A stretch of 64,000 nt of DNA from an uncultured Gemmatimonadales bacterium (lineage in GTDB: Bacteria > Gemmatimonadota > Gemmatimonadetes > Gemmatimonadales > GWC2-71-9): the NCBI GenBank assembly GCA_963821525.1, contig CAWGED010000003.1, forward strand, positions 1 to 64,000, in the 5' to 3' direction. Below the pieces are notes generated by a model, which saw only the letters and a list, made by a program, of their open reading frames with translations, was not told the origin of the DNA and made no database searches. Every line of letters begins with the position of its first letter. The first letter of the stretch is position 1. Position numbers and translations under genes: made by a program. Shown in pieces: positions 130 through 38,924 of the stretch.

Positions 130-205
130 CGGGCTTCCTTTGAAAATACATCGGCCGTTCAGGTGCAGCGCTGAGCGTCTCTCAGTCTTGATGCCTGAGT
201 TAGGC
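130..205 (-). repeat. degenerate attC
   Basis: ggcttcctttgaaaataca...caggtgcagcgctg resembles the dominant attC arm; GTTAGGC at 199-205. Confidence 0.45.
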
Positions 206-214
206 CGTGGCCGG

Positions 215-985
215 TCAGTACGACAGGATCAGCGGGAGCGCCGGCCGGAGATCCCAGCGCTCGCCGCGGGTCCCGTTGTCGAACTCGACTTCCAGAAGCG
301 GAGCGGAGGAGTCGTCAAAGCGCACCAGACGGAGGTCGAGGGCGGCGAGCCCTGGACGCTGCCGCGGCGTCGTGCGGACGACAATGCGCGAAATCCGGTG
401 CACCCCTGCTGGGTGGGCAAACCGCTCCGGTTCACGATCCCGGAAGCGAGCCAGCCACGTGGTGACAGCACGATCGGCGGGCATGATGAAGAGGTCGGGA
501 GCGAGGGACTCCGCCGGCTGCCGCAGCAGGACGTAATAGGTCGTTGGCCGGGAGTCCGGGACGGCATCGAGCCGGAACGGTATTCCCAGGTCGGAGGGGG
601 TGCCGGTAAGGAAATGCAGGCCAATGCCAAAGGGGCTGGCCCCGGTCTGGCCCCAGGCCGTGGCTCGGCGGAAGTCCGCCACATCGAATTCGTGGGCGGA
701 GTCAACGGCGACGCTCGAGTCGACCCACATCAGTTCGAGATAGGCGTTCTCGAAAAAGGCTGCGAGGGAGGTGGTGCCCTCGCCGTCATGGCGGACAGCT
801 TCCGTGTCGATGACAATGCCGGCCCCGCGCAGGGCTTGGACAGCCGCGGTGGCGCCGGGCGGGACGACGATGTAGACGTGGTCGAGCTCGAGCAGAGGAC
901 GCTGAGCGGCCTCCAGCGCGCGTGCGGAGCCGGCGACCGCGAGGAGGACAGCGAGGCGGAGGACCTTGGCGACGGTGGGTGCCAT
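215..985 (-). CDS. secreted VOC/glyoxalase-like protein (cassette)
   Basis: signal peptide, LDHV, H.GEGT and YLEL motifs. Confidence 0.7.
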   Translation of the reverse strand: MAPTVAKVLRLAVLLAVAGSARALEAAQRPLLELDHVYIVVPPGATAAVQALRGAGIVIDTEAVRHDGEGTTSLAAFFENAYLELMWVDSSVAVDSAHEFDVADFRRATAWGQTGASPFGIGLHFLTGTPSDLGIPFRLDAVPDSRPTTYYVLLRQPAESLAPDLFIMPADRAVTTWLARFRDREPERFAHPAGVHRISRIVVRTTPRQRPGLAALDLRLVRFDDSSAPLLEVEFDNGTRGERWDLRPALPLILSY

Positions 986-1001
986 TGGGGCCTCGATGGC
1001 G

Positions 1002-1070
1002 GTCTAACGCCGCGGCGTTCTGCTGCGGCGCCCTATCATAATTGCGGACAACGAGCGCAGCGAGCCGGCG
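1002..1070 (-). repeat. half attC (L'/R' arm only)
   Basis: GTCTAAC GCCGC GGCGTTCTGCTGCGGCG; complementary arm absent. Confidence 0.65.
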
Positions 1071-1107
1071 GCATCCTTACGGCCTCAAGCACCCGTCGAC
1101 CTGACAA

Positions 1108-1151
1108 GACAATACTTAGGTATTGACCTTAGTGTTGTCCGGCGATATAAT
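1108..1151 (+). promoter_or_regulatory. sigma70 promoter with overlapping palindromic operator
   Basis: TTGACC(1123)-N17-TATAAT(1146); imperfect IR GACAATACTTAGG/CCTTAGTGTTGTC over the -35. Confidence 0.75.
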
Positions 1152-1195
1152 CGGTCAGTCAGATAGGGTCACCCCACTAATCGGCTGGTGTCGAA

Positions 1196-1537
1196 ATGGT
1201 TCAATCCGCAGTCGCTGACGATGTGTTTTATGCCTTGTCCAATTCGACTCGGCGGAAAGTCCTGGAGCAACTGTCGGTCGGACCAGCCACCGTCAGCGAG
1301 CTGGCGGCACCGTTTGACATGAAACTCCCGTCGTTCGTGCAGCACCTATCGGTGCTCGAACAGAGCCGACTGGTGAGGTCGAAAAAGCGCGGGCGGGTGC
1401 GGACGTATGAGATCGCACCCGAACGGTTCAAGGTCGTTGAAGACTGGCTGACCGCACGTCGTCAGGAGTGGGAGGAGCGACTGGACCGGTTCGACCAGTA
1501 CGTCAAGCAACTCAAGGAGAAGGAATCAGGATCATGA
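1196..1537 (+). CDS. ArsR/SmtB family regulator
   Basis: FYALSNSTRR, HLSVLE, GRVR wHTH motifs. Confidence 0.92.
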   Translation: MVQSAVADDVFYALSNSTRRKVLEQLSVGPATVSELAAPFDMKLPSFVQHLSVLEQSRLVRSKKRGRVRTYEIAPERFKVVEDWLTARRQEWEERLDRFDQYVKQLKEKESGS

Positions 1538-2028
1538 GCAAGCACTTCAAGTTCGATCCGAAACTTGATTTCGCCATCGAACGGTTCATCGACGCCCCCA
1601 CGCGGCTCGTCTGGGAAGCGTTGACGAAACCGGAGCATCTCAAGGAGTGGTACATGCCCAAGCCTTGGGGTCGTGTGTCGCGAACCGAAATGGACGTGCG
1701 ACCGGGCGGCATCTTCAGCATCGACATCGCAACGGCAGACGGTCAGGAGTTACCCAACCTCGGCTGTTTCCTGGAAGTCATTCCGCTGGAGCGACTGGTC
1801 TGGACCTCCATGTTGTTCCCCGGCTTTCGGCCGGCGGTCTTCGACGACATTCCGATCACCGCCATCATGACGATGGAGACCGTGGGAACCGGCACTCGCT
1901 ACGTCTTCACGGCGCTGCACCGGAATGAAGCGGACCTCGAGACGAACAAGGCGTCGGGCTTCTACGAGGGCACCGAGATCGCCGTCGATCAGCTCGTGGA
2001 GCACGTGATCGCGATGAAACAGCTCTAA
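1534..2028 (+). CDS. SRPBCC/AHSA1 family protein
   Basis: IERFIDAP..LVWEALT.PEHLKEW; coupled to ArsR. Confidence 0.9.
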   Translation: MSKHFKFDPKLDFAIERFIDAPTRLVWEALTKPEHLKEWYMPKPWGRVSRTEMDVRPGGIFSIDIATADGQELPNLGCFLEVIPLERLVWTSMLFPGFRPAVFDDIPITAIMTMETVGTGTRYVFTALHRNEADLETNKASGFYEGTEIAVDQLVEHVIAMKQL

Positions 2029-3472: not shown

Positions 3473-3495
3473 GCCTAACGGCATGCGCTTCTGCT
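3473..3495 (-). repeat. truncated attC
   Basis: GCCTAACGGCATGCGCTTCTGCT joined directly to a stop codon. Confidence 0.6.
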
Positions 3496-4033
3496 AGGGG
3501 CGAATGAGGGGTGCGGCCCATGCGGGTGGTGGTTCTGAAGCGACAGGCTCGTATTGCATGACGAGGGCCTCAGTCACGATGTCGCGAAGTTCGTAATGCG
3601 CGCCCATGCCGCCGTGGACGGTCTCCTGATAGAACGCCACCCGCGTACTGGTGGAGTCAAACTGCCACCGCCAGATAGGTAAGCCCGCGCCCGTAAACGT
3701 ATGGACGGTACCGTCGCTATAGATGACAAGTTTCAACGGAATCGGGTAAGACGTACAGCAGTTAGGGAACAATGCCAGCCAGCCAACCGCCAGTCGATTG
3801 GGGCTGACTGCGGCCTCGTCGAAGCCTACTTGATCGGTGTCGCGAGGGGGTTGGATCTGGCGGTGATCCATAGTGACGATGCGGAGTAGACCGGTAGCCT
3901 CAACTACTGCGGAATCATAAATCTCAGGGACCTGCGCCGCGAGCGGATCTGCACTGCACAACAGCGCTACGGTGGCGAGGCGCAGCGGAAAGCAGCTGGC
4001 GCGTTGAGCATGGACTCTGGGCATGGGCTCCAA
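3494..4033 (-). CDS. secreted hypothetical protein (cassette)
   Basis: ORF between att cores; signal-like N-terminus. Confidence 0.65.
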   Translation of the reverse strand: MEPMPRVHAQRASCFPLRLATVALLCSADPLAAQVPEIYDSAVVEATGLLRIVTMDHRQIQPPRDTDQVGFDEAAVSPNRLAVGWLALFPNCCTSYPIPLKLVIYSDGTVHTFTGAGLPIWRWQFDSTSTRVAFYQETVHGGMGAHYELRDIVTEALVMQYEPVASEPPPAWAAPLIRP

Positions 4034-4046
4034 CTCGCTGATGTCC

Positions 4047-4114
4047 GGCTAACCTTTGTGTTCAGCCGCACGCGAAGCGCAGCGGAGCGTATCGGCTGCA
4101 ACACGTTGTTCGGT
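4047..4114 (-). repeat. attC (short type)
   Basis: GGCTAAC...GTTCGGT with GTGTTCAGCCG/CGGCTGCAACAC stem. Confidence 0.85.
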
Positions 4115-4201
4115 GGCAGACATCAGTATTCACCAGGCGCTGCTAGCTGACCGCGCAGTGTTCTTTCTGAAGGAATGACTCCACGGGTTCCGCTTGAAGG
4201 C

Positions 4202-5401: not shown

Positions 5402-5504
5402 GCCGAACAGCCCGCGCTTGACCTGCGCGCGACAAGTGTACGAGTCAACGACTGGATGGCTTCCTTAAAACCTAGCGCCCGACAGGTGCAAGCGTTGGTT
5501 AGGT
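5402..5504 (-). repeat. attC (dominant family)
   Basis: GCCGAAC...GTTAGGT. Confidence 0.9.
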
Positions 5505-6639: not shown

Positions 6640-6730
6640 ACCTAACGAACAGGGTTAAGCTGCGGTGCTCTTGTGAAACCGCAGCATGTGCAAGATGCGG
6701 GTAGGCGCCGGCAGCTTCAACCCGTTAGGT
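6640..6730 (-). repeat. attC
   Basis: ACCTAAC...GGGTTAAGCTGC/GCAGCTTCAACCC...GTTAGGT. Confidence 0.85.
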
Positions 6731-9570: not shown

Positions 9571-9673
9571 GCCGAACGGCCCGCGCTTCACACGCGGGCG
9601 ACATGTGTACGGGTTCACCACTGGACTGCTTCCTTAACGAACAGCGCCCGACAGGTGCAAGCGCTGGGTAGGC
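9571..9673 (-). repeat. attC (dominant family, R'' mutated)
   Basis: GCCGAAC...GGTAGGC. Confidence 0.85.
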
Positions 9674-10572: not shown

Positions 10573-10681
10573 GCCTAACGCCCACGCGCCGCGCAGGCGC
10601 GACCGCTGCCTTGCGCGAATCTTACTCCAGCCGCGCCTGCGCACCTAGCGCGGCCCCGTCTGCAGCAAACACGGGTTAGGC
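10573..10681 (-). repeat. attC (arms poorly paired)
   Basis: GCCTAAC...GTTAGGC. Confidence 0.65.
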
Positions 10682-11329: not shown

Positions 11330-11432
11330 GCCTAACGGCCCGCGCTTCACCTGCGGACGACGAGTGTACGAGTTCACAAACGGACCGCTTCCTCAAAACC
11401 GAGCGCCCGACAGGTGCAAGCGCTGGTTAAGC
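11330..11432 (-). repeat. attC (dominant family)
   Basis: GCCTAAC...GTTAAGC. Confidence 0.92.
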
Positions 11433-11968: not shown

Positions 11969-12073
11969 GCCTAACGGCCCGCGCTTCACCTGCGGGCGAT
12001 GAGTATACGAGTCCACAACTGGACGGCTTCCTTTAAGAATACAGCGCCCGACAGGTGCAAGCGCTTGTTGGGC
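11969..12073 (-). repeat. attC (dominant family)
   Basis: GCCTAAC...GTTGGGC. Confidence 0.92.
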
Positions 12074-12824: not shown

Positions 12825-12929
12825 GCCTAACGCCCCGCGCTACACCTGCGGGCGACGAGTGTACAAGTTAACAACTGGACGGCTTCCTCTAGAACTACAG
12901 CGCCCGTCAGGTGCAAGCGCTGGTTAGGC
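12825..12929 (-). repeat. attC (dominant family)
   Basis: GCCTAAC...GTTAGGC. Confidence 0.92.
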
Positions 12930-13373: not shown

Positions 13374-13508
13374 GCCTAACGGCACGCGCTTCACCTGCGG
13401 GCGCGACGGAGCGTGGCGCACCGTCTGGTTGTCTGCTTCATCGACCCCTCCTTGGCGCACAAATGGAACGCTGTTGCGGCGCCCGCCAGCTGCAAGCGCA
13501 AGTTAGGG
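13374..13508 (-). repeat. attC (long type)
   Basis: GCCTAAC...GTTAGGG. Confidence 0.88.
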
Positions 13509-13512
13509 CGCG

Positions 13513-13556
13513 TCAGACGCGCTTCAGCAGGTTATCGTACTCCGCGTGCGACCCAA
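13513..13556 (-). pseudogene. 3' remnant of a RelE/ParE/HigB-like toxin
   Basis: reads GSHAEYDNLLKRV* ending next to R''. Confidence 0.4.
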
Positions 13557-13688
13557 GCGCATCCGATCAATCGCATTGAAGAACTGCTGCCGTGGAATGT
13601 CGCTGCCGCGCCTGCCGTAGCGATCAAAGCCGCAGCCTAACCCTCGCCTAACCTCAGCACGTCAAGACGGCCAGCGGCAGACGCTTAC
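13550..13688 (+). mobile_element. IS66 right-end remnant
   Basis: TnpC C-terminus HPINRIEELLPWN; end ...GACGCTTAC. Confidence 0.8.
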
Positions 13689-13737
13689 CATGCGATCTCC
13701 TGTGAGCTGTTCAAGGCAGCGCGAGCTCGGCCTCCCC

Positions 13738-13783
13738 TTGCGTGCCGCCTATCCGTGTGTTAAATACTGAACCACATGGTTCA
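13738..13783 (+). promoter_or_regulatory. promoter and ArsR-type operator
   Basis: TTGCGT-N17-TAAATA; palindrome TGAACCA-CA-TGGTTCA over the ATG. Confidence 0.65.
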
Positions 13784-14141
13784 CTATACCCAGACCCGCT
13801 TCGATGCCTCGTTCGCCGCGCTCTCCGACGCCACCCGACGTGGCGTTCTGGAGCAGCTCGGGCGTGCAGACGCTTCGATCACGGGCCTTGCCGAGAAATT
13901 CCGCATGACCCTCACGGGCATAAAGAAGCATGTCGGCGTCTTGGAGCAGGCGGGGCTAGTCACCACGGAGAAGGTCGGGCGCGTGCGGACCTGCAAGCTC
14001 GGCCCGCGCCGACTGGAGGAGGAAGCTGCATGGATCGAGAGATACCGCCAGCTCTGGGACGCACGCTTCGACGAGCTGGACAAAGTTGTCGAGGAATTGA
14101 AACGGAAGGAGAAGGTCAATGAACGCAAGAAGAGAGAGTGA
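13776..14141 (+). CDS. ArsR/SmtB family regulator
   Basis: FAALSDATRR, HVGVLE, GRVR. Confidence 0.92.
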   Translation: MVHYTQTRFDASFAALSDATRRGVLEQLGRADASITGLAEKFRMTLTGIKKHVGVLEQAGLVTTEKVGRVRTCKLGPRRLEEEAAWIERYRQLWDARFDELDKVVEELKRKEKVNERKKRE

Positions 14142-14634
14142 GGTTGCCCCCATGAAGAACCGTACGACGGTGGAGCGGAAGTCCGAGCGTGAGCTCGTCG
14201 TCACGCGAACTTTCAACGGCCCGGCGCGCCTCGTGTTCGAGGCGTGGACCAAGCCCGAGCTGTTCAGGCAGTGGTGGGTGCCGAAGTCGATGGGAATGTC
14301 CCTGCTTTCCTGCGAAATGGATGTTCGTGTCGGGGGCAGGTACCGTTTGGAGTTCGCACACGGGGACTCACAGTCGGCGTTCTTCGGCACGTACAAGGAA
14401 GTAACACCGCACTCGCGCCTCGTCTGGACCAATGAGGAAAGTGACGAGGGTTCCGTCACGACGGTGACCTTCGCGGAAAAAGGCGGCAAGACGTTGCTGG
14501 TCATGCACGAGCTTTATCCCTCGAAGGAAGCTCTCGACGCCGCCGGCACCGGGGCGGCGGATGCGATGGGAGAGTCGTTCGAGCAACTGGACGAGCTTCT
14601 CGTCACCCTGGGCGCGAGCGTGGGACGGTCATGA
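14119..14634 (+). CDS. SRPBCC/AHSA1 family protein (alternative start 14152)
   Basis: ELVVTRTF..P..LVFEAWTKPEL. Confidence 0.9.
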   Translation: MNARRESEVAPMKNRTTVERKSERELVVTRTFNGPARLVFEAWTKPELFRQWWVPKSMGMSLLSCEMDVRVGGRYRLEFAHGDSQSAFFGTYKEVTPHSRLVWTNEESDEGSVTTVTFAEKGGKTLLVMHELYPSKEALDAAGTGAADAMGESFEQLDELLVTLGASVGRS

Positions 14635-14736
14635 AGTCGTCAATCTCGCGTCGGCTGCCTTGCCGGTCGCCCTCGATCATCGAGCGCTCCGCGCCGCGCG
14701 CACCCGTTGGCGCTACCCCGGCAGCCGAGGTAAACC

Positions 14737-17235
14737 ATGATTGGTGATTTCCTTCGGGACGTGAAGTATGCGCTCCGCTCCTTCGCCAGGCGGCCGCTCT
14801 TCACCGGCGTCATCCTGCTCACGCTGGCACTCGGCATCGGCAGCAACGTCGCGATCTTCAGCGTGGCCAACGCGGTTCTCTTCCGCCCCCTCCCCTTCAA
14901 GGACCCCGACCAGCTGGCCTTCCTGTGGACCCGGCTCGCCGCCACCAACGTCGCCCGCTCCCTGGTCTCGGGACCCGACTTCAAGGACTACCAGGACCAG
15001 ACCACCCAATTCGACGCCTTCGCCGGCGCGATTGCGCTCACCGGTACGCTCACCGGCGACGGGCCGCCGGAGCGGATCACCAACGCCTACGTGACCTGGA
15101 ACCTGCTCTCCCTCCTGGGGGTCCAGCCGGTCCTGGGCCGGACCCACATCGCCGAGGATGCCTTCCCGATCGACCCCAAGATGTTCGGCAATCCGGATCC
15201 CAAGCTCCCGCCGGGCAAGGTGGTCCTGAGCTACGGCTTGTGGCAGCGGCGCTTCGGCGGCGATCCGTCGGTGCTCGGTCGCACCATCATGATGGATGGC
15301 TGGGGCTCGGTGGTGGTCGGCGTGCTGCCGCGCGACTTTCGCATCTACCTCCCCGCCGACGCCGCCATGCCGACCAAGATCGACGCCTGGGGCGTGCTGC
15401 CGAGCAATATCAGCGACTTCGAGCGGGAGCAGGCGTGGCTCACCGTCGTGGCGCGGCTCAAGCCCGGCGTCTCCCTGGACCAGGCCCAGTCCGAGATGGA
15501 CCGCGTGGCGGCGCGGCTCCGGGAGACCTACCAGTTCCACGCCACCGAGAAGCTCCAGATTGAGGTGGCCGGCATGCAGCGCGACGTGGTGGAGCACGCT
15601 CGGCCCGCGCTGCTGGCGCTCCTCGGGGCGGTGGGCTTCGTGCTGCTGATCGCCTGCGCCAACATCGCCAACCTGCTCCTGGTGCGGGCCTCGGAGCGGG
15701 GCCGCGAGATCGCCGTGCGAGCGGCGATCGGAAGCGGGCGGGGCCGCATCGTGGCCCAGATGCTCACCGAGAGCCTGGTGCTCGCCGCCGCCGGCACCCT
15801 GCTCGGGCTGCTCCTCGCCTGGCAGGGGATCCGGGTGATCAAGGCGTTGGGCCCGGCCAACCTGCCACGGCTCGAGAACGTGTCGCTCGATGCGGGCGCT
15901 TTCCTGTTCGCCGCAGTGGTCACCGTAGTGGCGGCACTCCTGTTCGGGCTGGCGCCGGCGCTCCGCGCGGTCCGGGGCAACCTGGCCGACAGGCTCCGCG
16001 ACCGCGGCACCGGCACCGGCGGCGCCCGGGGCAACAAGCTCCGCACCGCCCTGGTGGTGAGCGAGGTGACCCTGTCGCTGGTGCTCCTGATCGGCGCCGG
16101 GCTCATGGTGCGGAGCTTCGCCGCGATCCAGCGGGTGGACCCCGGCTTCGACCCGAAGAACGCCGTGACGTTCACCGCGCCGCTCCCCTTCATCAAGTAC
16201 TTGTCATCCCAGTCGCGGGCCACCTTCGTGAATCAGCTGGGCGACCGGCTGGCCGGCATCCCGGGCGTCGAGGTGGTGGGCGGGGTCACCCCGCTGCCGC
16301 TGGCCGGCGGGGAGCAGTACGCCGTCGGCTCGTACGGCCGGATCGGCGAGTCGGACGACGCCTACCGGGCCAACAAGGCGGACTACAAAGCGGTGCTGCC
16401 GGGATACTTCGAGGCGATGAAGATCAAGCCGGTGTCCGGCCGCACCTTGGTCCGCTCGGACAACGAGTCGGAAGCGCTCGATGTCGCGGTGGTAGACCAG
16501 AAGTTCGCGACCCGGGTTTTCGGTAAGGAGAACCCGCTGGGGGCCGAGATCCTGGTGGATCACGTCAACGAGAAGACCTTCTCGCTGGAGCGGCTGCCGG
16601 TGACGATCGTGGGGGTGGTCGCGAACGTGCGCTCCACCTCGCTCGCGAGCGAAGGCCGGGAGACGATCTACATGCCGTACGTCTTCCAGTCGTTCCTGCC
16701 GCTCACCTTCGTGGTGCGCACCACCGCCGCTCCCGACGGCCTGATGCCGCTGATCCGGGCCGAGGTCGCCGCGCTGGACCGGGACGTGCCCGTCGCCGAC
16801 CTGGCGACGCTCGAGTCCTGGGTCACCGAGGCGATGGCCCCGACCCGGTTCCTGTTGGCCCTCACCGGCACCTTCGCCGGCCTGGCGCTGGTGCTCGCCG
16901 TGCTCGGCCTGTACGGCGTGGTGGCCTACTCGGTGCGGCAGCGGACCCGGGAGATCGGGCTGCGGGTCGCCCTGGGCGCCAGCGATCGCGATGTCCGCCG
17001 CCTGATCCTGGGCCACGGACTGGTGGTGACCGCGGTCGGGATTGTCCTCGGCCTGGTGGCCTCGATCGGGTTGACCCGGGTGATGAGCAGCTATCTGGTG
17101 GGGGTGAGCGCCACCGACCCGTTGACCTTCGCCGGGGTGCCGGTGGTGCTGCTCGGGGTGGCGGCCCTGGCCTCCTACCTCCCCGCGCGGCGGGCGGCGA
17201 GCATCGATCCGGTCCGTGCGCTCCACGAGGAGTGA
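14737..17235 (+). CDS. duplicated MacB/FtsX ABC permease (ADOP-type)
   Basis: TLALGIG, CANIANLLL, REIGLRVALGA. Confidence 0.93.
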   Translation: MIGDFLRDVKYALRSFARRPLFTGVILLTLALGIGSNVAIFSVANAVLFRPLPFKDPDQLAFLWTRLAATNVARSLVSGPDFKDYQDQTTQFDAFAGAIALTGTLTGDGPPERITNAYVTWNLLSLLGVQPVLGRTHIAEDAFPIDPKMFGNPDPKLPPGKVVLSYGLWQRRFGGDPSVLGRTIMMDGWGSVVVGVLPRDFRIYLPADAAMPTKIDAWGVLPSNISDFEREQAWLTVVARLKPGVSLDQAQSEMDRVAARLRETYQFHATEKLQIEVAGMQRDVVEHARPALLALLGAVGFVLLIACANIANLLLVRASERGREIAVRAAIGSGRGRIVAQMLTESLVLAAAGTLLGLLLAWQGIRVIKALGPANLPRLENVSLDAGAFLFAAVVTVVAALLFGLAPALRAVRGNLADRLRDRGTGTGGARGNKLRTALVVSEVTLSLVLLIGAGLMVRSFAAIQRVDPGFDPKNAVTFTAPLPFIKYLSSQSRATFVNQLGDRLAGIPGVEVVGGVTPLPLAGGEQYAVGSYGRIGESDDAYRANKADYKAVLPGYFEAMKIKPVSGRTLVRSDNESEALDVAVVDQKFATRVFGKENPLGAEILVDHVNEKTFSLERLPVTIVGVVANVRSTSLASEGRETIYMPYVFQSFLPLTFVVRTTAAPDGLMPLIRAEVAALDRDVPVADLATLESWVTEAMAPTRFLLALTGTFAGLALVLAVLGLYGVVAYSVRQRTREIGLRVALGASDRDVRRLILGHGLVVTAVGIVLGLVASIGLTRVMSSYLVGVSATDPLTFAGVPVVLLGVAALASYLPARRAASIDPVRALHEE

Positions 17236-17400
17236 CGGGTGGGCGGGGCTCGAACCCTTGAGCGACTCGACCATCTCGGCGGCGCACTAACCGCCGCGAT
17301 TTGGGGGCAGCAACTTCCGTGGTGGCCCAGCGCCTCTTGTGCGGCCAACGCACATAGGAATGCGGAATCGGAGACAGGTGGTCCGCGTCGTGGTGCCACC

Positions 17401-17428
17401 GCCCGACAGGTGCAAACGCTGGTTAGGC
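17401..17428 (-). repeat. half attC (R''/L'' arm only)
   Basis: GCCCGACAGGTGCAAACGCTGGTTAGGC. Confidence 0.75.
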
Positions 17429-17872: not shown

Positions 17873-17962
17873 GCCTAACGACTCGCGCTTAACCTGCGGC
17901 GCGCACAAGAATGAGTCATTCCCTAATCTACGCGCGCCGACAGCTGCAAGCGCTGGTTAGAC
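17873..17962 (-). repeat. attC
   Basis: GCCTAAC...GTTAGAC. Confidence 0.9.
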
Positions 17963-18155: not shown

Positions 18156-18289
18156 GCCTAACGGCCCGCGCTTCACCTGCGGGCGACGAGTATAGGTGTC
18201 CACAGCTCTACGTTCCTTATAATGCCGACGGAGCCAACCGGCGCTAGGGCGCTTCCTGAGCGCCCTACAGGTGCAAGCGCTGGTTAGGC
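18156..18289 (-). repeat. attC
   Basis: GCCTAAC...GTTAGGC. Confidence 0.9.
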
Positions 18290-18812: not shown

Positions 18813-18850
18813 GCCTAACGTCAAAGTTCAACTGCAACGCCAAGTTAGGC
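18813..18850 (-). repeat. 38-bp internally deleted attC
   Basis: GCCTAAC-24 nt-GTTAGGC; R'' matches cassette start at 19616-19626. Confidence 0.65.
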
Positions 18851-20354: not shown

Positions 20355-20451
20355 GACTAACGACCGCGCATAAGCTGCGAAGCGCGGCTCAGGGGCGCTA
20401 GTAGTAACGAAGAAGCTGGCCGCTCTTCGACGCTTCATGCGCCTGTTAGCC
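20355..20451 (-). repeat. attC
   Basis: GACTAAC...GTTAGCC. Confidence 0.8.
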
Positions 20452-20980: not shown

Positions 20981-21046
20981 GGCTAACGGCCCGCGCTTCA
21001 CCTGCGCGGCGCGAAGCGCCGTGTCAGGTGCAACGCCATGCTAGCT
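20981..21046 (-). repeat. short attC (R'' mutated)
   Basis: GGCTAAC...GCTAGCT. Confidence 0.75.
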
Positions 21047-22068: not shown

Positions 22069-22172
22069 AGCTAACGGCCCGCGCTTCACCTGCGGGCGGC
22101 GAGTGTACGAGTCCGCAACTGGATGGCTTCCTTCAAGAACCAGCGCCCGACAGGTGCAAGCGCTGGTTAGGT
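22069..22172 (-). repeat. attC (dominant family)
   Basis: AGCTAAC...GTTAGGT. Confidence 0.92.
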
Positions 22173-22822: not shown

Positions 22823-22949
22823 ACCTAACGGCCCGCGCTTCACCTGCGGGCGACGAGTGTACGAAATGCGGGCGACGAGTGTACGAATTCACAAGTGGAC
22901 GGCTTCCTTTGAGAATACAACGCCCGACAGATGCAAGCGCTGGTTAGGG
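22823..22949 (-). repeat. attC with internal tandem duplication
   Basis: TGCGGGCGACGAGTGTACGAA occurs twice. Confidence 0.88.
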
Positions 22950-23443: not shown

Positions 23444-23552
23444 CCCTAACGGACCGCGCTTCAGCTGCGGGCGACGAATGTCACACGTCCACGAATGGAC
23501 TGGCTTCCTTTGAAGAAGTTAGCGCCCGTCAGGCTGCAAGCGCTGGTTAGGT
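23444..23552 (-). repeat. attC
   Basis: CCCTAAC...GTTAGGT. Confidence 0.88.
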
Positions 23553-23775: not shown

Positions 23776-23879
23776 ACCTAACGCCCGCGCTTCACCTGCG
23801 GGCGACGAGTGTACGAGTTCACAACTGGATGGCTTTCCTTGAGAACCTAGCGCTCGACAGGTGCAAGCGCTGGTTAGGC
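23776..23879 (-). repeat. attC (dominant family)
   Basis: ACCTAAC...GTTAGGC. Confidence 0.9.
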
Positions 23880-24415: not shown

Positions 24416-24509
24416 GCCTAACGGTTCGCGCTTCTGCTGCGGCGCTACTGGATTCCAACACCGTTTCGTGAACACGACCGCGCCCGACAGCAGCAAGCGC
24501 TGGTTAGGC
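24416..24509 (-). repeat. attC
   Basis: GCCTAAC...GTTAGGC. Confidence 0.88.
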
Positions 24510-25919: not shown

Positions 25920-26021
25920 GCCTAACGGACTGCGCCTAAGCTGCGGCGCCACACTGTATGGTTCACAAACGCAATTCTAGCATCGAGGACTGGCGCCGTC
26001 AGCTTCAGGCGCGTGTTAGGC
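25920..26021 (-). repeat. attC
   Basis: GCCTAAC...GTTAGGC; near-identical to 36349-36450. Confidence 0.9.
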
Positions 26022-26244
26022 GGCAGCCTTCCGCGGCAGACGCCATGCCCAAACGCTGAGTCCCGCGCTCACAGCAACGATCAGAAGGTCAGCATGGTGA
26101 AGATGGCCTCGGTTGATGACCTCGACGACATGAGCGGCCGCGATAGCAGCGAATACAAGGCCAGTAGTGATCAAGTAGGGCTTCATCGGTCCCGTTCGAA
26201 GGGGTGCTGCAGAAGTCGCAGGTCACTCCTGACGGCAAGACTGG

Positions 26245-26523
26245 CTACTTGCCGAACACTCTGGCCGCCGCTTCTGCCGCGTTGGAATCGTCGACGACCG
26301 GGTGCAGTTCGATGTCAATCAGGTCGCCCCAATTGTTGACGTGCTCGCAAAGGGCGGTCATGTCGTCCGTTTCCAGGACGTGCCAGCCCAGAACCGAGCC
26401 GGGCACATGGTACCGAGCGACTTGGTTCACCCCCTCGGGCGGCGGACCGCCGGTTTCCAGAAACTGCTGAAACGCCATCTTGTACAGGCCGGGGCGCGTC
26501 CTCCATGTCAGCATGAACTTCAC
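26245..26523 (-). CDS. DUF3303-like protein
   Basis: MKFMLTW...FLETGGPPPEGV...W.DL....PVVDD. Confidence 0.8.
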   Translation of the reverse strand: MKFMLTWRTRPGLYKMAFQQFLETGGPPPEGVNQVARYHVPGSVLGWHVLETDDMTALCEHVNNWGDLIDIELHPVVDDSNAAEAAARVFGK

Positions 26524-26747
26524 GGTAGCACTCTCCTTCCCCTAGTTGAGTTCTCGAGCGGGAGAAACATCGTACGCGCATTTGTGGATAAGAGCTATTA
26601 GCGCTATCCGAAGGCGAGATAATGACTCTTGTCAGGCACCTCCGCACTCACAAGCCAGGACTCATGAAGCACGTTCGGCGAAGCGGTGGAGGCCCAGGCC
26701 ACGGTGGGCGCCGCACACAGCAGTGGGTTGGTACTAAGGGGCCCGCC

Positions 26748-26850
26748 GCCTAACGGCCCGCGCTTCACCTGCGGGCGACGAGTGTCCGAGTCCACAACTG
26801 GATGGCTTCCTTAAAACCTAGCGCCCGACAGGTGCAAGCGCTGGTTAGGC
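26748..26850 (-). repeat. attC (dominant family)
   Basis: GCCTAAC...GTTAGGC. Confidence 0.92.
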
Positions 26851-27523: not shown

Positions 27524-27627
27524 GCCTAACGGCCCGCGCTTCACCTGCGGGCGACATGTATACGAGTCCACAACTAGACGGCTTCCTTAGAAACCTAGCG
27601 CCCGGCAGGTGCAAGCGCTGGTTAGGC
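27524..27627 (-). repeat. attC (dominant family)
   Basis: GCCTAAC...GTTAGGC. Confidence 0.92.
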
Positions 27628-28148: not shown

Positions 28149-28274
28149 GCCTAACGGCCCCGCATAAGCCGCGGGCCGAGGCGCGCCGCGTCCAGCTGTC
28201 CTGGCCGCGGATGGGTGTCTGCTCCTGGACAATTGTGAGGGCCGAGGCGTGCCAGCTTCATGCGGTAGTTAGGC
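28149..28274 (-). repeat. attC
   Basis: GCCTAAC...CCGCATAAGC/GCTTCATGCGG...GTTAGGC. Confidence 0.85.
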
Positions 28275-29019: not shown

Positions 29020-29122
29020 GCCTAACGGCCCGCGCTTCACCTGCGGGCGACGAGCGTACGAGTCCACAATTGGACGGCTTCCTTAGAACCAATCGCCCGA
29101 CAGGTGCAAGCGCTGGTTAGCT
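29020..29122 (-). repeat. attC (dominant family)
   Basis: GCCTAAC...GTTAGCT. Confidence 0.92.
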
Positions 29123-29762: not shown

Positions 29763-29874
29763 AGCTAACGCCCGCGCTTCAGTGGCGGGGCGGCTGCGGG
29801 ACGGTAGCCTTGCTATAAATGTAAGCCGCCGCACGTGGCCGGCCCGCCCCGGCCACTGCAAGCGCTAGTTAGAC
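29763..29874 (-). repeat. attC
   Basis: AGCTAAC...GTTAGAC. Confidence 0.88.
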
Positions 29875-30258: not shown

Positions 30259-30362
30259 GTCTAACGCCCGCGCTTCACCTGCGGGCGATCTGAGCCAGCC
30301 CGACACAAGTGGCTGGCTTCCTTGAAAATACAGCGCCCGTCAGGTGCAAGCGCTGGTTAGGT
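30259..30362 (-). repeat. attC
   Basis: GTCTAAC...GTTAGGT. Confidence 0.9.
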
Positions 30363-30953: not shown

Positions 30954-31059
30954 ACCTAACGGCCCGCGCTTCACCTGCGGGCGACGAGTGTTCGAGTTCA
31001 CAACTGGACGGCTTCCTTCAAGAAATACAGCGCCCGACAGGTGCAAGCGCTGGTTAGGC
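30954..31059 (-). repeat. attC (dominant family)
   Basis: ACCTAAC...GTTAGGC. Confidence 0.92.
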
Positions 31060-31550: not shown

Positions 31551-31653
31551 ACCTAACGGCCCGCGCTTCACCTGCGGGCGACATGTGTACGAGTCCACAA
31601 CTGGATGGCTTCCTTAAAACCTAGCGCCCGACAGGTGCAAGCGCTTGTTAGGT
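31551..31653 (-). repeat. attC (dominant family)
   Basis: ACCTAAC...GTTAGGT. Confidence 0.92.
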
Positions 31654-32254: not shown

Positions 32255-32358
32255 ACCTAACGCCCGCGCTTCACCTGCGGGCGACGAGTGTACGAGTTGG
32301 CAACTGTTGGGCTTCCTTTAAGACTACAGCGCCCGACAGGTGCAAGCGCTGGTTAGAC
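32255..32358 (-). repeat. attC (dominant family)
   Basis: ACCTAAC...GTTAGAC. Confidence 0.92.
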
Positions 32359-32359: not shown

Positions 32360-32545
32360 TCACGGCGGCGGGATCTCGAGGTCGCGACAGATCTTCCGCG
32401 CTAGCAGATCGTTGATGTCGCGATGGCGAGGGATTGAGGAGCTCTTCCGGACCCGGCGATTCACATAGACCGTGTGGTTCCCACCCTCGCGGAGGAACTC
32501 ACAGCCGTGGGACTCCAGGTGGCGGATGAGATCGGTCCGCTTCAC
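32360..32545 (-). CDS. hicA: HicA family toxin
   Basis: LREGGNHTVY...IPRH.DI. Confidence 0.9.
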   Translation of the reverse strand: MKRTDLIRHLESHGCEFLREGGNHTVYVNRRVRKSSSIPRHRDINDLLARKICRDLEIPPP

Positions 32546-32766
32546 GCGGCCGAGATACGCAAGGGTTCGCGGATGACGTTCCGGCCGCGAAGCTCCTCCT
32601 CCAGCAACTGGCGATTGGCTTCCAGGACGAGGCGGGTCGCCTCCTCCAAGTTGGTGCGGGCTTCGTCGAGCGTGGCGCCCTGGGTGTTGGCTCCCGGGAG
32701 CTCCTCGACGAACCCGATGTACCCCTCGGGGACTTTTTGAAAGACGGCAGTGAGCTGGAGCTGCAT
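32542..32766 (-). CDS. hicB: HicB family antitoxin
   Basis: ELPGANTQGATLDEAR.NL.EA. Confidence 0.9.
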   Translation of the reverse strand: MQLQLTAVFQKVPEGYIGFVEELPGANTQGATLDEARTNLEEATRLVLEANRQLLEEELRGRNVIREPLRISAA

Positions 32767-32815
32767 GGGAGTGCTCGGGTTCAGATGCTCAAATCTACCA
32801 CGGGGGATACGTGAC

Positions 32816-32919
32816 GGCTAACGGCCCGCGCTTCACCTGCGGGCGACGAGTGTACGAGTTCACAACTGGACGGCTTCCTTCAAAATACAGCGCCCGACAG
32901 GTGCAAGCGCTAGTTAGCC
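32816..32919 (-). repeat. attC (dominant family)
   Basis: GGCTAAC...GTTAGCC. Confidence 0.92.
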
Positions 32920-33313
32920 AGCTGACTCACTCAGGCGGTCAAGGTCGCGTCTGACCCAGGCGAGCAGGTCCTCCTGCGTCCACGTACCATTGGCGACTGA
33001 CAGAATCGCTCGCTCAGCTTCGTCGACTGACGCCGTCAGTTGGAAGCCGTTGAGCATCAGGAAGGCCTCCATGGCCGCATGCCCGACCCGCTTGTTCCCA
33101 TCGGTGAAGGGGTGTCCCTGAATCAGGGCGAACCCGAGGATCGCCGCCTTGTCTGCCAGCTCCAGATAGAGATCTGCCCCGCCAAACGTCTGGCGGGGCA
33201 GGGCAACCGCGGCTTCGAGGTAGTTCATGGCGGCCAGGCCTTCACGTCCGGCGGTCGCCGCCATGATGCGTGCGTGAAGGTGGAGGACCTCACCGCAGCG
33301 TCAGGTACCGCAC
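32914..33313 (-). CDS. doc: Doc/Fic family toxin (5' part frameshifted)
   Basis: HPFTDGNKR motif. Confidence 0.85.
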
Positions 33314-33559: not shown

Positions 33560-33665
33560 GGCTAACGGCCCGCGCTTCACCTGCGGGCGATGAGTGTACG
33601 AGTCCACAACTCGGCTGGCTTCCTTCAAGGATACAGCGCCCGACAGGTGCAAGCGCTGGTTAGGC
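33560..33665 (-). repeat. attC (dominant family)
   Basis: GGCTAAC...GTTAGGC. Confidence 0.92.
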
Positions 33666-33943: not shown

Positions 33944-34046
33944 GCCTGAACGCCCGCGCTTCACGTGCGGGCGACGAGTGTACGAGGCCGCAACTGGACG
34001 GCTTCCTTAGAACCTAGCGCCCGACAGGTGCAAGCGCTGGTTAGGC
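33944..34046 (-). repeat. attC (dominant family)
   Basis: GCCTGAAC...GTTAGGC. Confidence 0.88.
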
Positions 34047-34054: not shown

Positions 34055-35373
34055 GGTACAGTCTAAATACATGGGTGACAGAACAGTCTAAAGACATGGG
34101 TGACACCGGGGCCACCTTGCGGACTCCTCAAGGAGGGGTCCGATGCCGTGGCAGGAGGAGTCGACCATGCAGCTCCGTCGCCAGTTCATTCAGGATGTCC
34201 AGAGTGGTGCGACGCCCATCACCGAGCTCTGCCGGGCCTATGGCATCAGTCGGAAGACCGGCTACAAGTGCCTCGCGCGCTACGAGGCCGGCGGCCTTCC
34301 GGCACTCGTCGATCGGTCGCGGCGCCCGCAGACCTCCCCCACCGCGACGGCCCCGGAGCGGTGCGGGCCCTGCTCGCGGCCCGGCACCATCACCCCACGT
34401 GGGGGCCCCGGAAGCTGCTCCGTCTCTTGCGGCAGCAACTGCCCGCCGCGCCCTGGCCCGCGCGCAGCACGATCGCCCTCCATTTGCACCGCGCCGGACT
34501 GGTCGTCACGCCCCGGCGGTCCGGCGCCCCGGCCATCCCGGCCGTCCCCAAGCGCCGATGGACGCCCCGAATGCGATCTGGACCGCCGATTTCAAAGGTC
34601 AGTTCAAGCTCGGCAATGGGCAGTACTGTTATCCGCTGACGCTGGCGGATGGCTACAGTCGGCTGCTGCTCCGCTGCCAGGCGCTGACCAGCACCCAGGG
34701 GGCGGAGAGCCGTCCCGTCTTCGTCCGCGCCTTTGAGGAGTTTGGCTTGCCCGTGCGGATCCGCTCGGACAACGGGGTGCCCTTTGCCACCCAGGCGCTC
34801 GGCCGGCTCTCTCCGCTCTCGGTGTGGTGGCTGCGCCTGGGGATCCTGCCCGATCTCACGGAACCGGCCTCGCCGCAGCAGAACGGCCGGCATGAACGGA
34901 TGCATCGCACCCTCAAGGCCGAGTGTACCCGGCCGCCGCGGGCCTCGCGCCAGGCGCAGCAGCGCCGCTTCGACACCTGGCGCACGGAGTTCAACGAGCT
35001 CCGCCCGCACGAGGCGCTGCACGATGTCACGCCGGCGTCCCTCTATCGGCCGTCGCCGCGCCCGTATCCGCGCCGCCTGCCGCCGCTCGACTACCCGCTG
35101 CACTATGAAGTCCGCCGGGTCAGTCATAACGGCGGGATCCGCTGGTACAGCGACTGGGTCAATGTCAGCCAGACGCTCGGCGGCGAGTACATCGGCCTGG
35201 TCGAGATCGATGATCGCGAATGGGACGTCTACTTCGGGCCGCTCCGCCTCGGCCGCTTTCACGAGGACACCCGGCGGATTGAGGATGCCCTCGGTCGCCA
35301 GCACCGGCGGCCCTATTGAAAAGTGTTACCGATGTCCTTGGACTGTTTTGTCACCCATGTCCTTGACTGCTCA
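34055..35373 (+). mobile_element. IS481-family element
   Basis: ~50-bp terminal IRs built from two CAGTC..ACATGGGTGACA units; possible CGG target duplication. Confidence 0.88.
34143..35319 (+). CDS. IS481 DDE transposase, frameshifted
   Basis: MPW..., SRKTGYK, WTADFKG, SDNG, ERMHRTLK. Confidence 0.88.
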
Positions 35374-35646: not shown

Positions 35647-35749
35647 GCCTAACGGCCGGCGCTTCACCTGCGGGCGACAAGTATTCGAGTTCACAACTGG
35701 ATGGCTTCCTCAAAACCTAGCGCCCGACAGGTGCAAGCGCTGGTTAGGT
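35647..35749 (-). repeat. attC (dominant family)
   Basis: GCCTAAC...GTTAGGT. Confidence 0.92.
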
Positions 35750-36348: not shown

Positions 36349-36450
36349 ACCTAACGGACTGCGCCTAAGCTGCGGCGCCACACTGTATGGTTCACAAACG
36401 CAATTCTAGCATCGAGGACTGGCGCCGTCAGCTTCAGGCGCGTGTTAGGC
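36349..36450 (-). repeat. attC
   Basis: ACCTAAC...GTTAGGC. Confidence 0.9.
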
Positions 36451-36673
36451 GGCAGCCTTCCGCGGCAGACGCCATGCCCAAACGCTGAGTCCCGCGCTCA
36501 CAGCAACGATCAGAAGGTCAGCATGGTGAAGATGGCCTCGGTTGATGACCTCGACGACATGAGCGGCCGCGATAGCAGCGAATACAAGGCCAGTAGTGAT
36601 CAAGTAGGGCTTCATCGGTCCCGTTCGAAGGGGTGCTGCAGAAGTCGCAGGTCACTCCTGACGGCAAGACTGG

Positions 36674-36952
36674 CTACTTGCCGAACACTCTGGCCGCCGC
36701 TTCTGCCGCGTTGGAATCGTCGACGACCGGGTGCAGTTCGATGTCAATCAGGTCGCCCCAATTGTTGACGTGCTCGCAAAGGGCGGTCATGTCGTCCGTT
36801 TCCAGGACGTGCCAGCCCAGAACCGAGCCGGGCACATGGTACCGAGCGACTTGGTTCACCCCCTCGGGCGGCGGACCGCCAGTTTCCAGAAACTGCTGAA
36901 ACGCCATCTTGTACAGGCCGGGGCGCGTCCTCCATGTCAGCATGAACTTCAC
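36674..36952 (-). CDS. DUF3303-like protein (duplicate)
   Basis: protein identical to 26245-26523. Confidence 0.8.
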   Translation of the reverse strand: MKFMLTWRTRPGLYKMAFQQFLETGGPPPEGVNQVARYHVPGSVLGWHVLETDDMTALCEHVNNWGDLIDIELHPVVDDSNAAEAAARVFGK

Positions 36953-37175
36953 GGTAGCACTCTCCTTCCCCTAGTTGAGTTCTCGAGCGGGAAAACATCG
37001 TACGCGCATTTGTCGATAAGAGCTATTAGCGCTATCCGAAGGCGAGATAATGACTCTTGTCAGGCACCTCCGCACTCACAAGCCAGGACTCATGAAGCAC
37101 GTTCGGCGAAGCGGTGGAGGCCCAGGCCACGGTGGGCGCCGCACACAGCAGTGGGTTGGTACTAAGGGGCCCGCC

Positions 37176-37265
37176 GCCTAACGGACCGCGCTTAAGCTGC
37201 GGCGCGCTGGAGAAAGATTCATTCCATAATCTACGCGCGCCGGCAGCTTCAAGCGCTTGTTAGGC
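37176..37265 (-). repeat. attC of first cassette
   Basis: GCCTAAC...GTTAGGC. Confidence 0.9.
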
Positions 37266-37292
37266 AGCACACCATGATGGAGCACAGCGTCT

Positions 37293-37724
37293 CTAGTGCT
37301 TAGCGGCATGCTTCAACGCAGCGACAGCTCCCATGAGTGTGAGGAGACCTGCGAACAACCCCGAACCAACGGTGACGATGTTTGCCACGAAAGCTATCCA
37401 ACCAGCCACTGAGCCGTCTGGCCCCAGCGCGCGAATGCCGACGGTCGCCTGCACAAGAATGGCCGTGGCGAAGGCATACGCCGTCGCCAAGAGCGTCCAG
37501 CAAAGGGCTGCCTGCTGAGCTGGCGTCAGCACCAGAAGCGGGAAGGCAGCCGCTATGGCCAGAAGCCAGACGCCAGCGAGTAGCAATGCGTTGTGTGCGG
37601 CACGCCACGCCTGAGGCTGTATGCCGGCGACCTCCTCAGCCACTGCCGCCAGGCCTAGGAGCAGACCGACGAGGACCAATGCGGCCCCGTGAAGGAGAAT
37701 AAGCGCTCGCCCGTTACGGATCAT
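37293..37724 (-). CDS. 4-TM membrane protein (possibly StyC-like)
   Basis: LLHG and WRAAH motifs; first cassette. Confidence 0.6.
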   Translation of the reverse strand: MIRNGRALILLHGAALVLVGLLLGLAAVAEEVAGIQPQAWRAAHNALLLAGVWLLAIAAAFPLLVLTPAQQAALCWTLLATAYAFATAILVQATVGIRALGPDGSVAGWIAFVANIVTVGSGLFAGLLTLMGAVAALKHAAKH

Positions 37725-37740
37725 GCTCAGCCGGTGTGCT

Positions 37741-37810
37741 GCCTAACTATTACTTCACTTGCATGCGTGCGCTGCCCGTTCCCCCAATCCCCGCCTCCAT
37801 ATGCAATAAA
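37741..37810 (-). other. attI site (crossover G|TTAGGC at 37747/37746)
   Basis: last core site of array, no attC arm; GCATGCAAGTGAAGTAATAGTTAGGC. Confidence 0.75.
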
Positions 37811-37943
37811 GCAGAGCAAGCAACCGCCCCGCCCGGAAGCCGAAACTCCCCGCCGCGCATCATATTAGCCCTGCCAGGATTGAAACGGTGTCCCAATAAT
37901 ATGCTGCGAAGAACCCGGAAATAAGCAGTCCCCCCATCCGCCC

Positions 37944-38924
37944 TCAGCGCCGGTCCGCCGGACTCCGGACCCCCATCACCCCCCGGTTCAAGACGTGAGT
38001 ATAGATCATCGTCGTGCTCACGTCCGAATGCCCCAACAACTCCTGGACTGTCCGGATATCGTACCCATCCTCCAGCAGATGGGTCGCGAAGCTGTGCCGC
38101 AGGCTGTGACAGGTCGCCCGCTTGGTGAGCGCGGCCGAGCGGACCGCCTGAGTGACCGCCCGCTGGACCACCGTCTCGTGGAGATGGTGCCGTCGCCGCT
38201 CCCCCGTCTGCCGGTCCACCCAGGTCCGGGTCGCCGGGAAGACCCACTGCCACCGCCAGTCCCGTCCCGCATTGGGAAACTTGCGGGCCACCGCCGTCGG
38301 CAATTCCACCGTTCCACCCCCCGCCGCCACGTCCCGCTCGTGCAGCCCCTTCACCCGACCCAGATGCCGCCGCAACTCGGCCTTGATCGACTGCGGCAAC
38401 ATGGTGATCCGGTCCTTGTCTCCCTTGCCGCCCCGCACCGTCAGCTGGTCCGACTCGAAGTCCACGTCCTTCACCCTGAGCTGCAGACACTCCAGCAGGC
38501 GAAGTCCGCTTCCGTAAAGCAATGTCGCCACCAGCCGGACCGGACCCTCCAGCTGCCGCATCAGGCTCGAGACTTCATCCCGGGTCAGCACCACCGGCAA
38601 CCGGGTCCGCCGCGGCGCCCGCACCACTCGGGTGAGCCAGGGGAACTCCGACCGCATCACATGTCGATACAGAAACAGTATCGCGCTCAACGCCTGCGTC
38701 TGGGTGGACGCACTCACCCGGCCCGCCTCGGCGAGACTGCTCAGAAACCGGGTGACCTCTTCCTCTCCCAGCTCCGCCGGATGCCGCATCCCGCTGGCGC
38801 GAACGAACCGGATGACCCAGCGTACGTAGGCTTCCTCCGTCCTGCGGGAATAGTGCCCCAGACGAAGCGCCCGTCGCATCTGCGGAATGAGCTTGAGTGA
38901 CTCTGACGATTCGGGAGCCGCCAT
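37944..38924 (-). CDS. intI: integron integrase
   Basis: GLR, GKGDKDR, HSLRH, LGH, TTMIYTH plus IntI-specific insert [24 protein letters not shown]. Confidence 0.97.

Follow-up and report, generated by a model that had tools for sequence, protein, structure and literature searches.

The locus examined here raises the question whether an integrase gene, intI, and the long series of hairpin repeats lying beyond its 3' end on the same strand form a genuine chromosomal integron, whether that integron is still active, and how it relates to integrons already described. The window, that is, the whole 64,000-nt stretch analysed, to which all positions refer, is the start of contig CAWGED010000003.1 (C3) of assembly G000, a metagenome-assembled draft of 4.33 Mb in 19 contigs. 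A sequence-only reading had proposed an active superintegron in a probable Gemmatimonadota genome, with an intact intI on the minus strand, 35 complete attC recombination sites over 37 kb on that same strand downstream of its 3' end, an attI site about 200 bp after its stop codon, and core genes abutting the array. The locus can with confidence be assigned to the 'inverted integron-integrase' type of chromosomal integron, carried by a soil Gemmatimonadales bacterium; it is a large member of an already-described integron type, with a layout that is unusual relative to textbook integrons, and it is probably still active.

Regarding the integrase, the product of intI (326 amino acids, without internal stop) scored 449.7 bits against the TIGR02249 'integron integrase' model (cut-off 265), covering profile positions 2-314 of 315, and has the Pfam domains Phage_int_SAM_4 and Phage_integrase, while its scores on the XerC and XerD models are far under the cut-offs. 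Alignment to the crystal structure of VchIntIA of Vibrio cholerae (PDB 2a3v; E 1.9e-86, residues 15-325) revealed that R142, K167, H273, R276, H299 and Y308, positions counted manually on the alignment, are identical to the catalytic residues of VchIntIA, the residue set R-K-H-R-H/W-Y being taken from PMC2095811. The additional segment specific to IntI (about 25 amino acids, helix I2), as defined in PMC2095811, is also present and aligns to VchIntIA 190-224 with one 1-residue gap. No other recombinase of the assembly is above the IntI cut-off, which is failed by two other tyrosine recombinase loci (four further match rows). Family score, catalytic residues and uninterrupted frame thus bear out the description of intI as intact.

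For the repeats, a script pairing RYYYAAC with GTTRRRY cores returned about 22 hairpins, 21 of which were aligned in minus-strand orientation as seeds of a covariance model (CM), and the whole window was scanned with this model with filters off. The model was built from the window itself because no Rfam family matched the window; an inverted-repeat search did not recover the attCs either, since their arms are imperfect. The scan gave 34 minus-strand matches with E <= 4.6e-6, running from 37265 down to 5402 and comprising the 21 seeds and 13 new sites, whereas plus-strand scores at these 34 places did not exceed 29.2 bits. On the right (5') side of intI the scan of the window gave just two matches, both at chance level (E 0.44 and 0.72). 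A short site, attC 25, was counted as the 35th, as it has both cores and flanks that fit both neighbouring cassettes (4-nt complementarity to each); its fold is not significant (z -1.0). A further match at 24913-25003 (E 0.16) was rejected as an attC, being without cores and within an open reading frame (ORF). The window has 38 copies of the core heptamer GTTAGGC where 3.97 are expected, a number that none of 100 shuffles reached, and all 38 lie at or below 37747. Over the 34 sites, 94.9% of stem cells are paired (at most 43.9% in slid controls), compensatory changes on both sides are present in 12 of 24 stem pairs, and none of 500 shuffles reached the stem result, figures that favour the model since the stem alignment was fitted to it. 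About 20 attCs are nearly identical to a single consensus, and most are about 103 nt long; two sites, attC 1 and attC 15, were also folded as DNA (Table 1).

The strand on which these sites would recombine can be read from their anatomy. According to PMC5027507, the recombined bottom strand carries 5'-RYYYAAC-3' in the R' box, and the extrahelical bases are on the opposite arm, with position 16 for the first of them and 23 or 24 for the last. The window's bulged bases are found on the plus-strand 3' arm, at positions 16 and 23 from its 3' end and opposite 5'-AAC-3', with a clear two-bulge form (single-base bulges 6 bp apart) in 25 of the 34 sites; this identifies the plus strand as the bottom strand and means that the cassettes are read on the minus strand. 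A duplicated cassette defines the mobile unit: cassettes 2 and 16 differ by two substitutions and one indel over 828 nt, their identity extends from the R' core of the preceding attC into the R' core of their own attC, which lies on the low-coordinate side so that low-coordinate cores form the bounds, and the attCs preceding the two copies differ (90 vs 103 nt). This gives a unit of the form 'TTAGGC-gene-attC-G', read on the minus strand and matching that of canonical integrons. In addition, 22 of 34 cassettes have an outer R'' flank that is complementary, over at least 3 nt, to the bases that follow the preceding core, compared with 10/34 in the same-site control and 5/33 in the next-site control, and runs of at least 5 nt occur in 11 true pairs vs none and one, respectively. 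CM strand, bulge geometry and duplicated cassette thus agree in placing the cassettes on the intI strand, downstream of its 3' end. The covariance-model check that accompanied the sequence-only reading, run here with the window-built CM, gave minus-strand sites, with 34 full-length sites and one 38-nt short form matching the count of 35, and no attC 5' of intI.

The site next to intI is a lone core that begins 196 nt past the intI stop codon. AGCACACC, the sequence that flanks it on the outside, complements all 8 nt (8/8) preceding R'' of attC 1, and cassette 1 starts at this core; as the core has no attC arm and shows this 8-nt flank match to cassette 1, it is read as the attI crossover, and cassettes are predicted to enter at G|TT within it. 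The window and the genome G004 of the same genus are colinear through the 3' end of intI, the attI region and the core, and are unrelated from about 13 nt past the core. In eight of nine other relatives (the exception being locus L020), an A/T-rich stretch is followed by a GTT core, in some cases degenerate, about 100-350 nt after the intI stop, as judged by eye. The proposal that the first core without an attC arm, about 200 bp after the stop, is attI is thus upheld by its distance, its isolation, the flank match and the break with G004.

This junction was also found in other samples. Logan contigs (contigs, not reads) of four runs on soil or rhizosphere, each from a different study, of which one run (X1) may be the source sample, were placed on window positions 35000-41000. 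The intI stop and attI are bridged by X1 record 3 (37743-38098), X3 record 17 (37742-37923) and X4 records 27 and 28, which extend from 37802 or 37814 to 38025. X1 records 2 and 3 stop at 37747 and 37743, and X3 record 17 continues past 37742 with 147 nt unlike the window. An 828-nt contig of X3 corresponds to cassette 2 from core to core. Joints between attC-bearing places (36450 to 37177 and 35752 to 37173) were considered as excision products and rejected, their sides being 21-31 nt within repeats. A search for near-identical intI loci among metagenome contigs returned only relatives at 55-68% identity.

Regarding host and chromosomal setting, the right flank of intI carries, by Pfam, genes for a CAAX-type protease, a GNAT protein and pyruvate phosphate dikinase, then purF, purL, purQ and purS, followed by pssA, psd, purC, purB, htrA, trpD, lexA, trpC and trpB; with pur, trp and lexA genes on the intI contig, the locus is taken to be chromosomal. 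All eight PurB relatives with an organism name are from Gemmatimonadales or Gemmatimonadota (76-79% identity), as are all three IntI relatives that carry a name (88% identity for a partial protein, 67% for the other two), so that this marker-gene check and the named integrases confirm the Gemmatimonadota host. A gene of the '23S rRNA intervening sequence protein' family (PF05635, 94.1 bits) at 58109-58618 adjoins lexA. That the array abuts core genes holds for the intI side only; the other side runs into the end of the contig. Position 130, which had been given as the array boundary, is not where the array ends: position 1 of the window is the first base of C3, and the array therefore runs off the assembly, its far end unseen. 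No overlap of the C3 start with the end of any other contig was found among the assembly contigs. Genome-wide, the CM gave 44 matches, 35 of them on C3 (34 in the array and one at 136573) and seven in one cluster on contig C10. [quoted passage not shown]

The co-oriented layout is shared by relatives. Of 41 genomes of the order, counting G000, 23 have an IntI above the family cut-off; of the genus's four other genomes, one (G004) carries an intact IntI, one (G003) a split gene and two (G001 and G002) none. Only one cassette, at 88% identity, is common to the window and G004. Twelve intI loci of relatives were fetched, two of which end too soon for a layout call; all ten with downstream DNA are co-oriented, all attC matches but one lying 3' of intI on its strand. 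The G004 locus (L019) has an extra attC (10583-10687, 78.3 bits) on the same strand immediately 5' of intI, to which the window has no equivalent. Further afield, 80 metagenome loci with 55-68% IntI identity had attC matches in 22, comprising 17 co-oriented, four divergent and one mixed locus, and 80 named genome loci from many phyla had attC matches in 36, of which 34 are co-oriented and two, from Blastocatellia (L141) and Sterolibacteriaceae (L171), divergent; as the attC model is window-derived, matches in distant taxa are biased to window-like sites.

In an unrooted FastTree phylogeny of 160 IntIs, 95 rows of which have no layout call, the window IntI is sister to that of G004 (support 99), within a wider Gemmatimonadales group of moderate SH-like support (89-93, unstarred), and its labelled near neighbours are all co-oriented. 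The IntI phylogeny suggested as a check on the sequence-only reading thus groups the window IntI with co-oriented Gemmatimonadales IntIs. Five of the six divergent-layout rows fall in one nested 23-row clade, mainly of Pseudomonadota and Verrucomicrobiota; this nesting among co-oriented IntIs is consistent with the paraphyly of the inverted-integrase group stated in PMC4889954.

Cassettes measured from core to core are mostly 283-1088 nt long, with a median near 700 nt. Minus-strand cassette genes with Pfam families encode an epoxide hydrolase, a c-type cytochrome, GNAT, RidA/L-PSP, methyltransferase, cyclase, SnoaL-like, DUF4440, NPCBM domain, DUF3303 (twice), HicA, HicB-like and Fic/Doc proteins, and many cassette ORFs have no Pfam or NCBIfam family; NCBIfam searches of 21 unannotated ORFs (19 in the array, two in the intI flank) gave no matches. 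PADLOC detected no complete defence system in the window, with domain-level matches only (Fic, methyltransferase, RidA-like), and no resistance cassette or transposon context was seen at the locus in the Pfam scans, the only mobile gene there being an IS481-family transposase inside a cassette. Plus-strand genes of the array are confined to four long intervals. The block between 13.5 and 17.4 kb, which comes after a half attC, looks like an insertion or rearrangement rather than a cassette; its MacB-type permease has a third-position G+C content (GC3) of 0.94, a core-like value, vs 0.72-0.88 in the other filtered array ORFs. Two plus-strand pairs of ArsR and AHSA1/SRPBCC genes are present in the array (1196-2028 and 13776-14634), the AHSA1 proteins being 41% identical over 82 residues. 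The distal 5.4 kb contain degenerate or half sites only (at about 4044-4116, 3473-3502 and 130-205). The hairpin of the first of these has a single C bulge on the plus-strand 3' arm, and its fold is not significant (z -1.4); the half site near 17.4 kb has 5 flank nucleotides complementary to the flank after attC 27.

Table 1. Features of the integron and its array, listed from the integrase gene towards the contig end (window positions; bits and E values of attC sites are from the window-built covariance model)
Feature	Position	Strand	Evidence or remark
intI, integron integrase	37944..38924	minus	326 aa, intact
Predicted attI region, intI stop to crossover core	37748..37943	minus	homology to G004; contigs of X1, X3, X4
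Predicted attI crossover core GTTAGGC (G|TTAGGC)	37741..37747	minus	no attC partner arm
attC 1	37176..37265	minus	83.6 bits; bottom-strand fold z -5.7
Cassette 2 (DUF3303 protein), duplicate of cassette 16	36356..37182	minus	alignment; PF11746 82.8 bits
attC 2 (identical to attC 16)	36349..36450	minus	87.5 bits
attC 3	35647..35749	minus	106.5 bits
IS481-family transposase inside cassette 4, two frames	34075..35319	plus	rve/rve_3; HTH_28/LZ_Tnp_IS481 at 34143-34736
attC 4	33944..34046	minus	93.4 bits
attC 5	33560..33665	minus	98.2 bits
Toxin-antitoxin cassettes: HicA 32360-32545, HicB-like 32542-32766, Fic/Doc 32914-33264	32360..33264	minus	Pfam
attC 6	32816..32919	minus	114.3 bits
attC 7	32255..32358	minus	103.7 bits
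attC 8	31551..31653	minus	112.6 bits
attC 9	30954..31059	minus	111 bits
attC 10	30259..30362	minus	87 bits
attC 11	29763..29874	minus	54.3 bits
attC 12	29020..29122	minus	98.6 bits
attC 13	28149..28274	minus	54.2 bits
attC 14	27524..27627	minus	113 bits
attC 15	26748..26850	minus	114.8 bits; fold z -4.0
Cassette 16 (DUF3303 protein), duplicate of cassette 2	25927..26754	minus	alignment; PF11746 82.8 bits
attC 16 (identical to attC 2)	25920..26021	minus	90 bits
attC 17	24416..24509	minus	72 bits
attC 18	23776..23879	minus	104.2 bits
attC 19	23444..23552	minus	76.4 bits
attC 20	22823..22949	minus	91.5 bits
attC 21	22069..22172	minus	102.4 bits
attC 22 (short, 66 nt)	20981..21046	minus	33.8 bits, E 2.5e-6
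attC 23	20355..20451	minus	38.8 bits
attC 24	19620..19715	minus	67.5 bits
attC 25, 38-nt short form, little stem	18813..18850	minus	17.7 bits, E 0.029
attC 26	18156..18289	minus	82.3 bits
attC 27	17873..17962	minus	74.2 bits
Half attC, R''-L'' arm only, then interrupted	17400..17428	minus	19.6 bits, E 0.0095 (17325-17428)
Non-cassette block, 3.9 kb: ArsR-type regulator, AHSA1/SRPBCC, MacB-type ABC permease	13509..17399 (genes 13776-17235)	plus	Pfam
attC 28	13374..13508	minus	59.5 bits
attC 29	12825..12929	minus	105.5 bits
attC 30	11969..12073	minus	109.8 bits
attC 31	11330..11432	minus	104.6 bits
attC 32 (divergent)	10573..10681	minus	32.8 bits, E 4.6e-6
attC 33	9571..9673	minus	84.2 bits
Isochorismatase, TMEM175-like genes	7515-8861	plus	Pfam
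attC 34	6640..6730	minus	51.1 bits
attC 35, last full-length site	5402..5504	minus	80.7 bits
Possible degenerate attC after epoxide-hydrolase cassette	4044..4116	minus	by eye; not found by CM
Half attC, L'-R' arm only	3473..3502	minus	sequence; GTTAGGC core
ArsR, AHSA1, metallo-beta-lactamase fold, DoxX genes	1196-3216	plus	Pfam
Degenerate attC-like remnant beside contig end	130..205	minus	core 199-205; weak fold

What the analysis shows are the components of the integron with their order and strand, where the crossover lies, a recent cassette duplication and differing cassette content in relatives and samples, and a mechanism can be proposed from them. IntI would act as a complete tyrosine recombinase on an attI that lies 3' of intI and is predicted to end in G|TTAGGC at 37747-37741, followed by at least 35 same-strand cassettes, each made up of one short gene or none and an attC hairpin. 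By analogy with studied integrons, IntI would bind the folded bottom strand of attC, here the window plus strand, and cut the 5'-AAC-3' of the R' box between A and C; strand exchange with attI would give insertion and with another attC excision, replication resolving the junction. The cassettes would be transcribed from the intI side, either from a promoter within the 196-nt attI region or by read-through from the intI promoter, which the shared orientation of gene and array makes possible. The regions upstream of intI (38925-39043) and lexA (59309-59383) have in common the motif CTGTTCG(N)TCAC(N)AC, in opposite orientation, a resemblance of 12-14 nt, and the lexA upstream region also has ATTC-N7-GTTC; the motif could be a LexA box, but its 11 genome-wide matches are uninformative and no claim of LexA/SOS control is made.

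The attCs of this lineage depart from the described form in their extrahelical bases. In PMC5027507 the first extrahelical base is 'usually a G' and the other 'a conserved T'; in 28 of the window's 34 sites the first is G on the top strand and hence C on the recombined one, on which the second is mostly A and variable. Their positions (16 and 23) and 6-bp spacing, by contrast, are canonical. C in first position is also found in nearly all sites of ten related arrays (L019-L028), including 15/15 sites of L020 and 11/11 of L028, both from Gemmatimonadales, whereas canonical bases occur in some co-oriented loci of other phyla (L176, L137, L151), and the C trait is therefore not tied to the layout. 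The IntI residue aligned with W157 of VchIntIA, one of a pair of residues that contact the first extrahelical base, is Arg, as is R168 of IntI1. It is a tentative suggestion, with the odds against it, that Gemmatimonadales integrons use lineage-specific attC recognition (the conserved C at the strand-selecting first extrahelical base, where studied IntIs read G) and expression (intI read-through, with no separate divergent Pc promoter); if this were true, these integrons, abundant in soil, would form a functional subtype of their own, beyond a flipped textbook system.

Several points weigh against reading the locus as an active, chromosomal inverted integron. Recombination by IntI is itself a deduction from the DNA, and a consensus scan of the minus strand at 37200-39100 detected no sigma-70-like promoter, although this consensus may not be that of the phylum; terminator-like matches in the same promoter and terminator scan were at chance level (2 vs 1.5 expected). 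Erosion marks the distal array, whose attCs at 17400, 4044, 3473 and 130 are halved or degenerate; it is interrupted by non-cassette plus-strand blocks and by an insertion sequence, and its end is missing owing to the end of the contig. The assembly probably contains 1-nt indel errors. Three genes are split over two frames, namely those of pyruvate phosphate dikinase (42196-44303), trpC (59384-60215) and the IS481-family transposase, and one base of the window, at 39599, is absent from all four metagenome runs. None of the 12 relatives has, within about 9.5 kb of its intI, counterparts of the genes that flank intI in the window, and IntI is patchy within the genus; given this lack of flank synteny and this patchiness, a fixed 'sedentary' position is not established. 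The bias of the window-derived attC model in distant taxa, given above, belongs here too.

The alternative that fares best, though an unlikely one, is that of a genuine integron that is now a frozen relic, its intI intact but silent or inactive and its array merely inherited. Half attCs, the IS481-family insertion and non-cassette blocks in the distal array would suit a relic, as would the empty promoter scan and, in the same genus, the split intI of G003 and its lack in G001 and G002. Against a relic stand the fully intact catalytic residues and IntI-specific region, the closeness of about 20 attCs to one consensus, the near-identical cassette duplicate, whose copy nearer attI is at position 2, and the different cassettes beside the same attI in X3 record 17 and G004. 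Since the catalytic residues are intact, the duplicate is bounded at cores and contigs of other samples break or diverge at the attI core, the integron is probably still active. The 'active superintegron' of the sequence-only reading was in this respect a reasonable deduction.

It is highly improbable that the co-orientation is an assembly artefact, with a canonical integron or an integrase-less attC cluster misjoined to intI at 37750-37944. A 19-contig metagenome draft with probable indel errors would allow for such an error, and attC repeats can mislead assemblers; yet contigs of three other runs from three studies span the 3' end of intI into attI up to the core, G004 is colinear through the same segment, and the ten relatives have the same layout, so that a misassembly there, named in advance as an objection, is contradicted. 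That the repeats are genome-wide palindromic intergenic elements like repetitive extragenic palindromic (REP) sequences beside a Xer-like recombinase can be dismissed: a few matching sites do occur elsewhere in the genome, but the recombinase passes the IntI-specific model that the two other tyrosine recombinase loci fail, nearly all genome matches are on C3 or in the one C10 cluster, the sites have attC anatomy (RYYYAAC/GTTRRRY cores, bulges at 16 and 23, a variable loop), and they bound single-gene units, one of which is duplicated exactly from core to core.

The locus, read as a chromosomal inverted integron, gives Gemmatimonadota, a soil phylum that is common but little cultured, a well-documented example of a large integron whose integrase is intact, and with its clean attI, homogeneous attCs, recent duplicate and near-identical IntIs in many soil metagenomes it offers a usable template for studies of expression and recombination in co-oriented integrons. 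It leaves general knowledge of integrons unchanged, and its novelty, overrated at first, is modest: the inverted group is established, Gemmatimonadota are known hosts, named among integron-bearing phyla in PMC8618304, and IntI is widespread in the order, as given above. A full-text literature search on integrons and Gemmatimonadota gave no paper devoted to these integrons among the matches listed.

Compared with known systems, the locus has the features of an integron, namely an integrase of the IntI family with its catalytic residues, attC anatomy (from which the C and mostly A bulges deviate) and a predicted attI beside intI. It shares three modules and the core G|TTRRRY with class 1 mobile integrons (IntI1, attI1, Pc), but differs in being co-oriented and in lacking a transposon context, a resistance cassette and a detected Pc-like promoter; its score on the NF011946 integron-integrase equivalog model (354.6 bits) is under the cut-off of 435 and its contig carries core pur, trp and lexA genes, which places it outside the mobile integron classes 1-5. 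From CALINs and single attCs, which elsewhere in this genome belong to the same attC family, the array differs in its attached intact intI and attI. Like the Vibrio cholerae superintegron, or sedentary type, it has a long array, homogeneous attCs, toxin-antitoxin cassettes, duplicated cassettes and a majority of cassettes to which no function can be given, but its intI is co-oriented rather than divergent and its array is far shorter, the V. cholerae superintegron having roughly 180 cassettes. For a sedentary chromosomal integron, Cury et al. (2016; PMC4889954) give '>19 attC sites', or presence in 100% of a species' genomes, as the criterion, and the present array has 35 sites over 37.7 kb.

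The closest likeness is to the type of Treponema denticola, which is likewise chromosomal and has intI on the attC strand, the array 3' of it and cassettes mostly without a known function; a locus from a T. denticola metagenome-assembled genome (L119) was among the relatives found, at 54% IntI identity. The window differs from this type in host phylum, in the position of its IntI in a Gemmatimonadales branch apart from the Treponema branch, and in its attCs, most of them about 103 nt long and of one consensus, with C as first extrahelical base. The 'inverted integrase group' is one of three IntI groups in PMC3575428, an inverted integron-integrase category is also named in PMC4889954, and PMC13323075 treats the inverted layout as one of two known layouts; with intI on the attC strand, the array 3' of it and an integrase that groups with co-oriented IntIs, the locus belongs to this category.

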